NCBI RefSeq assembly: GCF_046105845.1
Contig: NZ_CP151004.1
DNA length: 64,000 bases
DNA from: Escherichia coli
GTDB lineage: Bacteria > Pseudomonadota > Gammaproteobacteria > Enterobacterales > Enterobacteriaceae
Reading direction: 5' to 3' (one strand)
Shown here: positions 55,893-62,335 of the stretch, in pieces
How the letters are laid out: each line of letters begins with the position of its first letter
How positions within the stretch are numbered: the first letter of the stretch is position 1
Position numbers and translations under genes: made by a program
Notes under the pieces: generated by a model
The model's input: the letters and a program-made list of their open reading frames with translations, nothing else
Database searches by the model: none
Told to the model about the DNA's origin: nothing

Positions 55893-56239
55893 AAATTCTC
55901 CTGTAAAACGCGGAATATACCGTACCTCTTAGCGGGGAAAAACAGGGTTATGCGGCAACGTCGAAATTAAATGTGATCTGCCACGCCTTTTATCACAAAA
56001 GTGTCTCCGGAAGTACGATGCAAATTTGCCTGGCAAAATAAGGATAATCAACATATTACGAATCGCTGCACACCTGTGCTGATGACTACTACGCAGAGAA
56101 ACAAATGTGCAAGAGAAAGCGCTATTTCTCCCCATGCAAAGAGTGAAAAATCGCTTTGAAAGGCCATCATGATGGGGTTATATCAGATCAAGCGGTGAGA
56201 AAGCGTATTTGCACAAATGTGCAGAACCAGGAGGCGGCA

Positions 56240-57187
56240 ATGGAAAACAGTGACGATATCCGTTTGATTGTGAAGATTGCCCAACTCTATTACGAACAGG
56301 ATATGACGCAGGCGCAAATCGCGCGCGAACTGGGTATTTACCGCACCACCATCAGCCGCTTGCTTAAACGAGGCCGCGATCAGGGAATTGTCACCATCGC
56401 CATCAACTATGACTACAACGAAAATCTCTGGCTGGAGCAGCAACTGAAGCAAAAGTTTGGCCTGAAAGACGTTGTGGTGGTGTCGGGAAATGATGAGGAT
56501 GAAGAGACTCAACTGGCGATGATGGGGTTACACGGCGCGCAACTGCTGGATCGCTTGCTGGAGCCTGGCGATATTGTCGGTTTTTCCTGGGGTCGCGCGG
56601 TGAGCGCACTGGTTGAAAACTTGCCGCAGGCGGGGCAATCGCGGCAGTTAATCTGCGTACCAATTATTGGCGGACCGTCCGGTAAACTCGAAAGCCGCTA
56701 TCATGTAAACACATTAACCTACAGCGCGGCAGCGAAGTTGAAAGGAGAATCGCATCTCGCGGATTTTCCGGCTCTACTGGATAACCCCTTAATTCGTAAT
56801 GGGATCATGCAGTCTCAGCACTTTAAAACCATCTCTGCCTACTGGGATAATCTGGATGTCGCCCTGGTGGGAATTGGCTCACCGGCCATTCGTGACGGCG
56901 CTAACTGGCATGCGTTTTATGGTGGTGAAGAGAGTGACGACCTGAATGCCCGCCAGGTTGCTGGCGATATTTGCTCGCGCTTTTTTGATATTCACGGCGC
57001 AATGATTGAAACGAATATGAGTGAAAAAACACTCTCTATCGAAATGAATAAATTAAAGCAGGCACGATATTCCATTGGCATTGCCATGAGTGAAGAAAAA
57101 TACAGCGGAATTATTGGTGCACTGCGTGGAAAATATATTAATTGTCTGGTAACGAATAGCAGCACAGCTGAACTATTACTGAAATAA
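56240..57187 (+). CDS. sorC: SorC-family transcriptional regulator of the sorbose operon, 315 aa
   Basis: ATG at 56240 after AGGAGG; N-terminal HTH (MTQAQIARELGIYRTTISRLLKRGRDQGIV) plus sugar-binding domain. Confidence 0.85.
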   Translation: MENSDDIRLIVKIAQLYYEQDMTQAQIARELGIYRTTISRLLKRGRDQGIVTIAINYDYNENLWLEQQLKQKFGLKDVVVVSGNDEDEETQLAMMGLHGAQLLDRLLEPGDIVGFSWGRAVSALVENLPQAGQSRQLICVPIIGGPSGKLESRYHVNTLTYSAAAKLKGESHLADFPALLDNPLIRNGIMQSQHFKTISAYWDNLDVALVGIGSPAIRDGANWHAFYGGEESDDLNARQVAGDICSRFFDIHGAMIETNMSEKTLSIEMNKLKQARYSIGIAMSEEKYSGIIGALRGKYINCLVTNSSTAELLLK

Positions 57188-57256
57188 AAATCTTCCCGAT
57201 GTTTACCGTAATAAAAATTACGGCGGGTCCCTATTATCTAAAATCAGGAGTCTGTT

Positions 57257-58063
57257 ATGCAAACGTGGTTAAATTTGCAGGATAAAATCATTATCGTCAC
57301 CGGCGGCGCATCCGGTATTGGTCTGGCGATTGTAGAGGAATTATTAGCACAAGGCGCAAACGTACAGATGGTCGATATTCACGGTGGCGATGGTCAATAT
57401 GAAGGTCATAAAGGCTATCAGTTTTGGCCGACCGATATTTCCAGCGCCAAAGAGGTAAATCATACGGTAGCGGAAATTATCCAGCGTTTTGGTCGCATCG
57501 ACGGTCTGGTCAATAACGCCGGGGTCAATTTCCCGCGTCTGCTGATCGATGAGAAAGCGCCTGCCGGGCAGTATGAACTCAACGAAGCTGCATTCGAAAA
57601 AATGGTCAATATCAACCAGAAAGGCGTTTTTCTGATGTCGCAGGCGGTGGCGCGACAAATGGTCAAACAACATGATGGCGTGATTGTGAATGTTTCCTCA
57701 GAAAGTGGGCTGGAAGGCTCAGAAGGCCAAAGCTGTTACGCCGCGACCAAAGCCGCGCTCAATAGCTTCACGCGCTCCTGGTCGAAAGAGCTGGGTAAGC
57801 ACGGTATCCGTGTGGTCGGTATCGCGCCAGGGATTCTGGAAAAAACAGGACTGCGCACGCCGGAATATGAAGAAGCGCTGGCGTGGACGCGCAATATCAC
57901 CGTCGAGCAGCTGCGTGAAGGCTATACCAAAAATTCCATTCCTATTGGGCGCGCCGGAAGATTAGCAGAAGTGGCTGATTTTGTTTGTTATCTGCTGTCT
58001 GAACGCGCCAGCTATATCACCGGAGTAACCACTAACATTGCAGGCGGCAAAACGCGCGGCTAA
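57257..58063 (+). CDS. sorD: Short-chain dehydrogenase (sorbitol/glucitol-6-phosphate dehydrogenase-type), 268 aa
   Basis: TGGASGIG Rossmann motif; YxxxK active site (YAATKAAL). Confidence 0.8.
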   Translation: MQTWLNLQDKIIIVTGGASGIGLAIVEELLAQGANVQMVDIHGGDGQYEGHKGYQFWPTDISSAKEVNHTVAEIIQRFGRIDGLVNNAGVNFPRLLIDEKAPAGQYELNEAAFEKMVNINQKGVFLMSQAVARQMVKQHDGVIVNVSSESGLEGSEGQSCYAATKAALNSFTRSWSKELGKHGIRVVGIAPGILEKTGLRTPEYEEALAWTRNITVEQLREGYTKNSIPIGRAGRLAEVADFVCYLLSERASYITGVTTNIAGGKTRG

Positions 58064-58072
58064 GGAGGCTTT

Positions 58073-58480
58073 ATGGTCAATGCCATTTTTTGTGCCCACG
58101 GCAAATTAGCTTGCGCCATGCTGGAATCGGTTCAGATGGTTTACGGCAACGCCAATGTTGAAGCCGTTGAATTTGTACCCGGTGAGAACGCCAATGACAT
58201 TGTGGCAAAGCTGGAAAAGTTAGTGAGCATTCACAATCAAGACGAATGGCTGATTGCCGTGGATTTACAGTGCGGCAGCCCGTGGAATGCGGCAGCGATG
58301 CTTGCGATGCGCAATCCTCGTCTGCGGGTAATCAGCGGCCTTTCTCTGCCGCTGGCGCTCGAACTGGTTGATAACCAGGACAGCATGAATGTTGATGAAC
58401 TGTGTGAACACCTGACGCAAATCGCAAAGCAATCCTGCGTCGTCTGGAGACAGGTGGCAACGGCAGAGGAGGATTTCTGA
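58073..58480 (+). CDS. sorF: PTS mannose/sorbose-family EIIA, 135 aa
   Basis: MVNAIFCAHGKLACAMLESVQMVYGN... (catalytic His near the N-terminus); AGGAGG before the ATG. Confidence 0.85.
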   Translation: MVNAIFCAHGKLACAMLESVQMVYGNANVEAVEFVPGENANDIVAKLEKLVSIHNQDEWLIAVDLQCGSPWNAAAMLAMRNPRLRVISGLSLPLALELVDNQDSMNVDELCEHLTQIAKQSCVVWRQVATAEEDF

Positions 58481-60672: not shown

Positions 60673-60723
60673 TTCTTCGCCCCGGCACGACTGCCGGGGC
60701 CATCGCTCAACATGAGGTGGTTT

Positions 60724-61953
60724 ATGAAAACAACAGCTCTGCGTCTTTATGGTAAACGTGATTTACGCCTGGAAACCTTTGATCTTCCTGAAATGCAGGA
60801 GGATGAAATCCTCGCGACGGTGGTCACCGACAGCCTGTGCCTCTCTTCCTGGAAAGAGGCCAATCTGGGTGAAAACCATAAAAAAGTACCCGACGATGTG
60901 GCGACCAACCCCATCATCATCGGCCACGAGTTTTGCGGCGATATTCTGGCCGTGGGTAAAAAGTGGCAGCACAAATTCCAGCCGGGCCAGCGCTATGTGA
61001 TTCAGGCCAACCTGCAATTGCCGGATCGCCCGGATTGCCCCGGCTACTCCTTCCCGTGGGTGGGCGGTGAGGCCACACATGTGGTTATCCCAAATGAGGT
61101 TATGGAACAAGATTGCCTGCTGGCATACGACGGCGAAACCTATTTTGAAGGCTCGCTGGTTGAACCGCTTTCCTGCGTGATTGGCGCGTTCAACGCCAAC
61201 TATCATCTTCAGGAAGGTAGTTATAACCACACGATGGGGATTCGCCCGCAAGGGCGCACGCTGATCCTCGGCGGCACCGGACCAATGGGACTGTTGGCGA
61301 TTGATTATGCGCTGCATGGACCCGTTAACCCGTCGCTGCTCGTCATTACCGATACCGACAACGATAAATTGAGTTATGCGCGCAAGCACTATCCATCAGA
61401 ATCGCAAACACTGATTCATTATCTCAATGCCACTGATGCAGCATTTGATACGTTAATGGCGCTGAGTGGCGGTCACGGCTTCGATGATATTTTCGTCTTT
61501 GTGCCTAATGAAGGACTGGTGACTCTCGCCTCTTCCTTGCTGGCGACAGATGGTTGCCTGAATTTCTTCGCCGGACCGCAGGATAAACATTTCAGCGCGC
61601 CAATTAATTTCTACGATGTGCATTATGCATTTACCCACTACGTGGGCACGTCAGGCGGCAATACCGACGACATGCGCGCAGCGGTCAAATTGATTGAAGA
61701 GAAAAAAGTGCAGGCCGCAAAAGTGGTAACACATATTCTTGGGCTGAATGCCGCGGGCGAAACCACGCTTGAATTGCCTGCCGTCGGCGGCGGCAAAAAG
61801 CTGGTGTATACCGGGAAATACCTGCCGCTTATGTCACTCACGCAGATTCAGGATCAAGCACTGGCGGCAATTCTGGCGCGTCATCAGGGGATCTGGTCCG
61901 GTGAGGCGGAGCAATATCTGCTCACTCATGCAGAGGCAATTTCCCATGATTAA
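60724..61953 (+). CDS. sorE: Zn-dependent dehydrogenase (sorbose-1-phosphate reductase-type), 409 aa
   Basis: ATG at 60724 after GAGGTGG; MDR-family motifs (GHEFCGDIL, GGTGPMGLLAID). Confidence 0.82.
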   Translation: MKTTALRLYGKRDLRLETFDLPEMQEDEILATVVTDSLCLSSWKEANLGENHKKVPDDVATNPIIIGHEFCGDILAVGKKWQHKFQPGQRYVIQANLQLPDRPDCPGYSFPWVGGEATHVVIPNEVMEQDCLLAYDGETYFEGSLVEPLSCVIGAFNANYHLQEGSYNHTMGIRPQGRTLILGGTGPMGLLAIDYALHGPVNPSLLVITDTDNDKLSYARKHYPSESQTLIHYLNATDAAFDTLMALSGGHGFDDIFVFVPNEGLVTLASSLLATDGCLNFFAGPQDKHFSAPINFYDVHYAFTHYVGTSGGNTDDMRAAVKLIEEKKVQAAKVVTHILGLNAAGETTLELPAVGGGKKLVYTGKYLPLMSLTQIQDQALAAILARHQGIWSGEAEQYLLTHAEAISHD

Positions 61954-62112
61954 TCGCGCTACTTAACTCTGCATGTCGCTGGCTGGTCGCCGCGGCAACT
62001 TCGCGACCTGATGTGCGGCTGATTGCTGAAGCGGCCCAATGTACACGAGAAGGATAAAAAAACATCAGCGCCTTAAGGGGCGCTCAAATTGGTGGCAAAG
62101 TACACATTGTTT

Positions 62113-62220
62113 ATGCCGGATGCGGAATGAAGCCTTATTCGGCATACATAATCTCGAAAATTCAATATATTGCAGTTATCTGGTAGGACTGGTAAGCGTA
62201 GCGCATCAGGCAATGCTGTG
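62113..62220. repeat. REP elements between sorE and pepE
   Basis: gccggatgcggaatgaagccttattcggcatac and gcgtagcgcatcaggcaatgctg. Confidence 0.8.
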
Positions 62221-62335
62221 TTTGTCATCAGTCTCAGCGCCCGGTGCAATACGTGACATCGTGAGCCATGTCAGTAAGTGGTTAAATTCGCAGTGGTAGC
62301 ATGCCTTCCGTGATTTCTTACTAACCGGAGAAGTA

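Follow-up and report, generated by a model that had tools for sequence, protein, structure and literature searches.

The 64,000-nucleotide stretch of Escherichia coli DNA analyzed here (assembly GCF_046105845.1, contig NZ_CP151004.1; hereafter the window) raises the question of why rluF and pepE, which are neighbors in strain K-12, are separated by seven other genes, and whether these genes form a working system for L-sorbose use that was gained by some E. coli or lost by K-12. Positions 55893-62335, bounded exactly by the start of rluF at 55892 on the minus strand and the start of pepE at 62336 on the plus strand, are best understood as an intact chromosomal L-sorbose utilization operon, sorCDFBAME, at its usual Enterobacteriaceae locus, with the K-12 allele best read as a loss. 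We assign this reading a probability of about 0.9.

The E. coli sor operon is an already known, ordinary feature. Since the 1980s, it has been known to map near metH and iclR, to be missing from K-12 and to be patchily distributed. The Klebsiella pneumoniae operon sorCDFBAME was reportedly described by Sprenger and Lengeler and by Wehmeier and Lengeler, and large genome surveys took up the sor operon again in 2010 and in 2025-26.

Gene content and identity of the operon

The interval contains seven open reading frames (ORFs) on the plus strand, in the order sorC-sorD-sorF-sorB-sorA-sorM-sorE, which together span 56240-61953 (Table 1). All are full length, begin with ATG, have no internal stop codons and follow a Shine-Dalgarno-like sequence. 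Successive spacings from sorC to sorE are 69, 9, -1, 65, 10, and 51 nucleotides (nt), and the noncoding margins comprise 347 nt 5' of sorC and 382 nt 3' of sorE. A first interpretation of these letters, made without database searches (the sequence-only reading), had proposed seven co-directional, tightly spaced genes, as borne out by the ORF list, the spacings and the intact frames. The layout is identical to that of RefSeq-annotated E. coli loci, in which sorE is the named L-sorbose 1-phosphate reductase, and the proposed match to the gene order of the Klebsiella/E. coli sor operon holds as well.

Families were placed with NCBIfam profiles against their curated cutoffs. The sorC product is a DeoR/SorC-type sugar-binding regulator, and the sorD product is a short-chain dehydrogenase/reductase (SDR) of the "sorbitol-6-phosphate dehydrogenase" family. 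A complete mannose-family enzyme II (EII) of the phosphotransferase system (PTS) is present, with TIGR00824, TIGR00854, TIGR00822, and TIGR00828 all above cutoffs for IIA, IIB, IIC, and IID, respectively. Products at the sorF position in six related contigs also match Pfam EIIA-man. For SorE, NCBIfam has no specific profile model and places it only as a medium-chain dehydrogenase/reductase (MDR)-type dehydrogenase; its assignment is based on ~99% identity to proteins that RefSeq names "sorE" and on the published results for a delta-sorE strain (PMC12817954). These family assignments agree with the content first proposed, namely a regulator, an SDR, EIIA to EIID components and a dehydrogenase.

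The identification turned on whether the PTS components group with sorbose systems or with those for mannose or N-acetylgalactosamine (GalNAc), and they group with sorbose. SorC aligns with K. pneumoniae SorC (2W48) over residues 1-315 of 315, and for SorB the score is 305 bits with 1NRZ, the sorbose-specific IIB protein of K. pneumoniae, versus 171 bits with ManX IIB and 75 bits with AgaV. The E. coli ManXYZ (mannose) and Aga (GalNAc/galactosamine) systems share the four-domain mannose-family EII architecture, but they are more distant by IIB score and have no linked sorE or sorD. The sugar specificity of SorA (IIC) and SorM (IID) is assigned because of their orthology and operon context. The K. 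pneumoniae sor operon has the same gene order and functions, with nucleotide identity to the window of ~79% (78% according to PMC2831201). The sor operon identification of the sequence-only reading is therefore supported.

Predicted pathway and relation to characterized operons

According to established Klebsiella/E. coli knowledge on the roles of the PTS, SorE, SorD, and SorC, as restated in PMC13410766 and PMC12817954, SorF, SorB, SorA, and SorM would take up and phosphorylate L-sorbose to L-sorbose-1-phosphate. SorE would reduce this product to D-glucitol-6-phosphate, which SorD would oxidize to D-fructose-6-phosphate for entry into glycolysis. SorC, encoded by the first gene, would act as a repressor without sorbose and as an activator with sorbose.

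Orthologous operons have been characterized experimentally. Operon c4981-c4987 of strain CFT073, whose proteins are each 82-97% similar to K. pneumoniae SorC-E, conferred growth on L-sorbose when cloned into DH5alpha (PMC2831201). In strains of sequence types (ST) 131 and 648, L-sorbose induces the sor operon, phenotypes were reported for knock-outs and knock-ins, and a delta-sorE strain was unable to process sorbose-1-phosphate (PMC12817954). The CFT073, ST131, and ST648 operons occupy the same locus as that of the window and have the same seven genes. Compared with CFT073, the Sor proteins of the window are of equal length with 0-7 amino acid differences each, and the genes are 94-98% identical at the nucleotide level.

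Within E. coli, sorF is the most divergent sor gene, with 94-95% nucleotide identity to CFT073 and JNE151685 compared with 96-99.8% for the other genes, in agreement with the four sorF clusters described in PMC12817954. Among 29-46 orthologues per gene, the substitutions private to the window are SorC V256I, SorF G41N and C121S, SorM L49V, and SorE P227S. The exact SorE protein of the window is indexed in 296 blocks of a public-assembly collection. Based on its sequence, this strain is predicted to be sorbose-positive.

The best matches of the window to complete RefSeq E. coli genomes reach 98.4-98.7% identity over 8-25 kb. Since 79% of the mismatches fall at third codon positions, this divergence is natural, reflecting an under-sampled or differently named lineage. 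The possibility that the window had been artificially mutated was considered and rejected on the same grounds.

Distribution of the two alleles in E. coli

In K-12, rluF and pepE are adjacent and separated by a 211-bp spacer. Homology between the window and K-12 stops at 55927/55928 and resumes at 62245/62246, so that K-12 has an 86-bp filler in place of 6318 bp of the window. The sor operon occupies exactly the same site in 2865 of 5426 complete E. coli genomes, and 2557 have the K-12-type rluF-pepE junction (100% identity in most matches listed); together, the two alleles account for 5422 genomes. The proposed adjacency of rluF and pepE in the absence of sor is thus confirmed in K-12 and in these sor-negative genomes, and the same counts substantiate the description of the operon as strain-variable. 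This variability is documented (PMC2831201, PMC12817954). In a published survey, over 86% of the genomes in each phylogroup had the operon, except in phylogroups A (9.6%) and B1 (12.1%) (PMC12817954). Plasmids almost never match the operon (7 of 72,556 records, two of these seven being mislabelled chromosomes).

A candidate second sor-negative allele, which would retain a 3' remnant of the gene sdhL discussed below, was suggested by rows matching only query positions 832-1181. It was discarded because O157:H7 NE92 is sor-positive, its 5' piece having been missed by megablast.

Probable ancestral presence and loss in K-12

The sequence-only reading had described the operon as inserted between rluF and pepE. 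As a description relative to K-12 this stands; as the direction of the event it probably does not, given that synteny in at least seven genera points to loss. In a survey based on a SorE scan with one genome per species, the arrangement yjbD, rluF(-), sorCDFBAME(+), ..., pepE(+), yjbB(-) recurs in at least seven genera. It is found in Escherichia whittamii, Escherichia albertii, and two other Escherichia species clusters, and outside Escherichia in Pseudocitrobacter, several Citrobacter species, Raoultella, Enterobacter species, and Cedecea. Among Klebsiella, the operon adjoins rluF in K. grimontii, K. michiganensis, K. oxytoca, K. spallanzanii, and K. indica. Every other Escherichia species that the scan recovered has the operon at the rluF-pepE site. 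In Citrobacter, Klebsiella, and Raoultella, nucleotide identity to the window is 77-86% for the sor genes and 78-83% for the flanking core genes.

The segment also lacks signs of mobility. No tRNA gene was found at the sor segment, no significant direct or inverted repeats at the junctions or flanks, and no sign of an insertion sequence (IS) element or integrase in scans, every ORF of the segment being accounted for by sor genes. The earlier statement that no integrase, IS element or direct repeats flank the operon is upheld by this ORF inventory and repeat search. Computed per 500 bp, the GC content of the segment lies between 0.41 and 0.58, similar to that of the flanks and without anomaly. 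With neither a mobility signature nor atypical composition, and with the site occupied in at least seven genera, the segment is unlikely to be a horizontally inserted islet.

At its start, the K-12 filler aligns over ~30 nt, in register, with the part of the Citrobacter rluF-sorC spacer nearest to rluF (23 of 30 positions identical, z ~5). Other comparisons of the filler were negative: local alignment with the window gave scores of only 12-13, which is about chance; blastn-short against all loci recovered shared flanks only; and for the 400 bp preceding pepE, aligned from 21 species, z was ≤ 2.3. Because of the shared synteny, the divergence matched to that of the flanks, the phylogroup distribution and the filler match, we favor an ancestral sor locus, from which a single deletion or replacement (6318 bp to 86 bp) would have given rise to the K-12-type allele.

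As an observation on the filler itself (L002 2529-2614), its first ~30 nt are closer to the Citrobacter-type spacer than to the spacer of sor-positive E. coli.

A deletion remnant of an eighth gene

The operon had been called complete. This is correct for the canonical seven genes, but not for a conserved eighth gene, sdhL, which in the window is reduced to a remnant (Table 1). In E. whittamii, the gap between sorE and pepE is 1086 bp, compared with 382 bp in the window, and contains an intact 270-amino acid ORF with its ATG overlapping the sorE stop codon (ATGATTAA). Its product matches the equivalog NF009202, "shikimate 5-dehydrogenase," at 462.5 bits (cutoff 306), and its best structural relative is SdhL HI0607 of Haemophilus influenzae (1NPY; 380 bits over residues 1-268). 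Whereas this HI0607-type gene is intact in E. whittamii, the window contained no intact ORF of ~270 amino acids at this position, which identifies the 112-bp sequence as a pseudogene remnant. What is left is the first 57 nt of the gene (19 codons, the seventh of them a TAA) together with its final 55 nt, which run to the former stop codon. The two parts meet at a frameshifting 701-bp internal deletion at 62002/62003, and the ATG likewise overlaps the sorE stop codon.

Near-full-length sdhL lies 3' of sorE in loci of ~28 enterobacterial species of the genera Escherichia, Pseudocitrobacter, Citrobacter, Klebsiella, Raoultella, Enterobacter, and Serratia. Most Klebsiella loci have an intact sdhL after sorE, unlike the window. 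The gene is whole in only 177 of the 5426 complete E. coli genomes, but in the majority of enterobacterial sor loci outside E. coli. CFT073 shares the 701-bp deletion, with a sorE-pepE gap of 381 bp, and the gap in O157:H7 is likewise short.

In earlier work, sdhL was reported as present and expressed in ST648 only and was treated as an ST-specific insertion (PMC12817954). Sequence comparison across genera indicates instead that sdhL in ST648 would be an ancestral state retained, an older 701-bp deletion having destroyed the gene in most sor-positive E. coli, the window included. We tentatively suggest, as a possibility toward which we do not yet lean, that the enterobacterial sor operon ancestrally comprised eight genes, that most E. 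coli share one 701-bp deletion and that SdhL may act on a sorbose-related ketose or polyol. If so, the "ST648-specific insertion" of the literature would be the retention of an ancestral state. To our knowledge, this enzyme class has no settled physiological substrate.

Candidate control elements upstream of sorC

An alignment of the rluF-sorC spacer from 12 sequences representing seven genera showed discrete invariant blocks (Table 1). The palindrome TGCACAAATGTGCA lies directly 5' of the sorC ribosome-binding site, with a single A to T change in Pseudocitrobacter vendiensis. No promoter was called in the spacer by a simple sigma-70 scan. We infer that SorC may act via the conserved GCACA/TGTGC-type inverted repeats in the 347-bp spacer. 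Three candidate operators of this type would fit the tandem-operator, tetrameric binding mode of the SorC family (PMC11229326).

Table 1. Coordinates of the sor operon, its flanking genes and associated sequence elements in the window
Feature	Position	Strand	Evidence
rluF, 23S rRNA pseudouridine 2604 synthase	55020-55892	-	NF007784, 606.7 bits (cutoff 318); RefSeq orthologous loci
rluF-sorC control region, 347 bp	55893-56239	+	Discrete invariant blocks in alignment
Block TGTGATC...ACAAAAGTG, possible CRP-like half-site or regulator site	55972-56003	+	Invariant columns, 12/12
Inverted repeat GCACAccTGTGC, candidate SorC operator	56068-56079	+	GCAC-N4-GTGC invariant across genera
CAAATGTGCAA, half-site related to palindrome at 56210, candidate SorC operator	56102-56112	+	Invariant, 12/12
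GTTATATCAGAT, candidate -10 region	56177-56188	+	Invariant in alignment; not called by simple sigma-70 scan
Palindrome TGCACAAATGTGCA, candidate SorC repressor operator	56210-56223	+	Conserved in all 12
sorC, transcriptional regulator, 315 aa	56240-57187	+	612 bits vs 2W48; 1-5 aa from E. coli orthologues
sorD, D-glucitol-6-phosphate dehydrogenase, SDR, 268 aa	57257-58063	+	NF004817, 499.7 bits (cutoff 304)
sorF, EIIA-Sor, 135 aa	58073-58480	+	TIGR00824, 149.5 bits (cutoff 98)
sorB, EIIB-Sor, 164 aa	58480-58974	+	305 bits vs 1NRZ; start overlaps sorF stop
sorA, EIIC-Sor, 265 aa	59040-59837	+	TIGR00822 EII-Sor, 423.7 bits (cutoff 339.9)
sorM, EIID-Sor, 274 aa	59848-60672	+	TIGR00828, 471.9 bits (cutoff 292.8)
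sorE, L-sorbose-1-phosphate reductase, MDR/zinc alcohol dehydrogenase type, 409 aa	60724-61953	+	RefSeq orthologue name; 3-6 aa differences
sdhL remnant, HI0607-type shikimate-dehydrogenase-like	61946-62057	+	Alignment to intact 270-aa E. whittamii gene
GC-rich hairpin AGCGCC-TTAAGG-GGCGCT after old sdhL stop	62067-62084		Terminator scan calls minus strand only
Repetitive extragenic palindromic (REP) pair, similar to a bacterial interspersed mosaic element (BIME)	62115-62211		Degenerate REP 62115-62147(+); REP 62183-62211(-)
pepE upstream region common with K-12	62246-62335	+	90 aligned bases, 86 identical to K-12 spacer
pepE, dipeptidase E, right flank	62336-63025	+	NF003642, 356 bits (cutoff 156)

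Alternative explanations

Several points weigh against an intact sorbose operon that was lost from K-12. Fifty-six nt of the K-12 filler match nothing in the sequences searched, and the polarity of loss follows by parsimony from sor-positive species only. The IIC and IID profiles also pass the cutoffs of ManY/ManZ-type subfamilies, so that the profiles alone do not separate the sugars. SorE of the window has Ser at position 227, where 28 of 29 compared orthologues have Pro. According to PMC2831201, which cites Lehmacher and Bockemuhl, Shigella keep sor DNA and are nevertheless sorbose-negative. Finally, the operator and promoter assignments are drawn from conservation. With respect to the sugar, a PTS importing mannose, fructose or GalNAc under a misassigned "sor" label would agree with the ManY/ManZ-type profile matches. 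We regard this as highly improbable considering that SorB and SorC match the K. pneumoniae sorbose proteins closely over their full length and ManX and Aga proteins far more weakly, that the orthologous operon has been verified experimentally in CFT073, ST131, and ST648 (PMC2831201, PMC12817954), and that the PTS genes lie beside sorE and sorD, two genes whose enzymatic chemistry is compatible with the sorbose-1-phosphate route only.

It is unlikely, in our view, that sor-positive E. coli gained the operon by horizontal insertion, as a small genomic islet from a donor such as Klebsiella or Citrobacter, between already adjacent rluF and pepE. Such an event would account for the absence of the operon from K-12 and 2557 of the 5426 genomes, for its strain variability (PMC2831201, PMC12817954) and for its occasional presence on large plasmids, and inter-genus exchange does occur at this locus, where the yjbD-rluF-sor block of Pseudocitrobacter is nearer to Escherichia than are its lysC, pepE, and yjbB. 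Yet position, orientation and gene order are equal in at least seven genera with a divergence matching that of the flanks, and all other Escherichia species recovered carry the operon at the site, which shows no integrase, IS element, tRNA, direct repeat or GC deviation. Furthermore, the sor-negative allele varies hardly at all and occurs mainly in phylogroups A and B1 (PMC12817954), the pattern expected from one recent loss, and ~30 nt of sor-type spacer are kept in the K-12 spacer. Another explanation would be that the operon is cryptic or nonfunctional in this strain because of a regulatory or missense defect, comparable to Shigella. The negative phenotype of Shigella carrying sor genes (PMC2831201), the SorE P227S substitution at a nearly invariant position, the identity of no more than 98.7% to any complete E. 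coli genome and the sorE or sorD frameshifts in other Escherichia lineages are in line with such a defect. We consider it improbable: none of the seven ORFs is truncated or interrupted by a stop codon, the lineage-private substitutions number only four or five and are mostly conservative, many public assemblies encode exactly this SorE protein and every conserved candidate promoter and operator block is intact. The sequence gives no hint of a cryptic operon, and we retain the reading of an intact sorbose operon at its probable ancestral site.

Possible exchange and decay, and distant relatives of the locus

Three Pseudocitrobacter loci share 87-93% identity with the window over the yjbD-rluF-sorCDFBAME-sdhL block, compared with only 79-81% over lysC, pepE, and yjbB. 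This contrast suggests that the block may have been exchanged between Escherichia and Pseudocitrobacter lineages. In the E. albertii type strain and in Escherichia sp. MOD1-EC7003, sorE matches are split or of a length not divisible by three, and the sorD match is partial in one further locus (L007); other Escherichia lineages seem to be losing an intact sor operon independently of one another. In Enterococcus crotali and Enterococcus ureilyticus, the order sorCDFBAME is kept with 60-73% amino acid identity for D, B, A, M, and E, and in Gilliamella loci the order is F-B-A-M-E followed by sorC. These loci could reflect either cross-phylum transfer or deep conservation.

Repeats and other features of the window

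A REP cluster had been noted as abutting the distal end of the operon. The elements are real, but they lie inside DNA specific to the sor allele, 35 bp from the right junction, and not outside it. Scored against what we take to be the REP consensus, the element at 62183-62211(-) has two mismatches, where none such is expected by chance, and its degenerate partner at 62115-62147 is a perfect REP in E. whittamii. Each E. coli genome has dozens of matches to the REP stretch. The hairpin at 62067-62084 is preceded by an A-run and not followed by a T-run on the plus strand, and there is no minus-strand gene being terminated there. On the plus strand, a simple terminator scan called no intrinsic terminator 3' of sorE, and the predicted RNA fold of 61950-62110 was no more stable than shuffled sequences (z = 0.21).

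On the other side of rluF, a boxC-like GC-rich palindromic repeat (ccctcaccctaaccctctccccgaaggggcgagggga) lies between yjbD and rluF at 54888-55019, with a core at ~54930-54985. It is part of a 111-bp indel; in CFT073, which is without the indel, yjbD and rluF abut directly. A 39-bp piece of the boxC region matches an E. coli plasmid at 100%. To the left, rluF is divergent from sorC, and the gene order of the window is standard (uvrA ... malEFG ... pgi-lysC-rluF). Rfam matches above gathering score in the window were the small RNAs sraL (8502-8642) and STnc430 (50682-50830) and a lysine riboswitch (52725-52921) upstream of lysC. These matches are as expected for this chromosomal region.

Conclusions

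The practical value of these results is the annotation of this strain as predicted sorbose-positive. They make two minor additions to what is known of the sor operon, namely evidence for an ancestral sor locus with a loss in K-12, and the finding that most E. coli carry the deletion scar of a conserved eighth gene, sdhL. The sorbose trait is enriched in phylogroups other than A and B1, and recent papers link it to competitive fitness.

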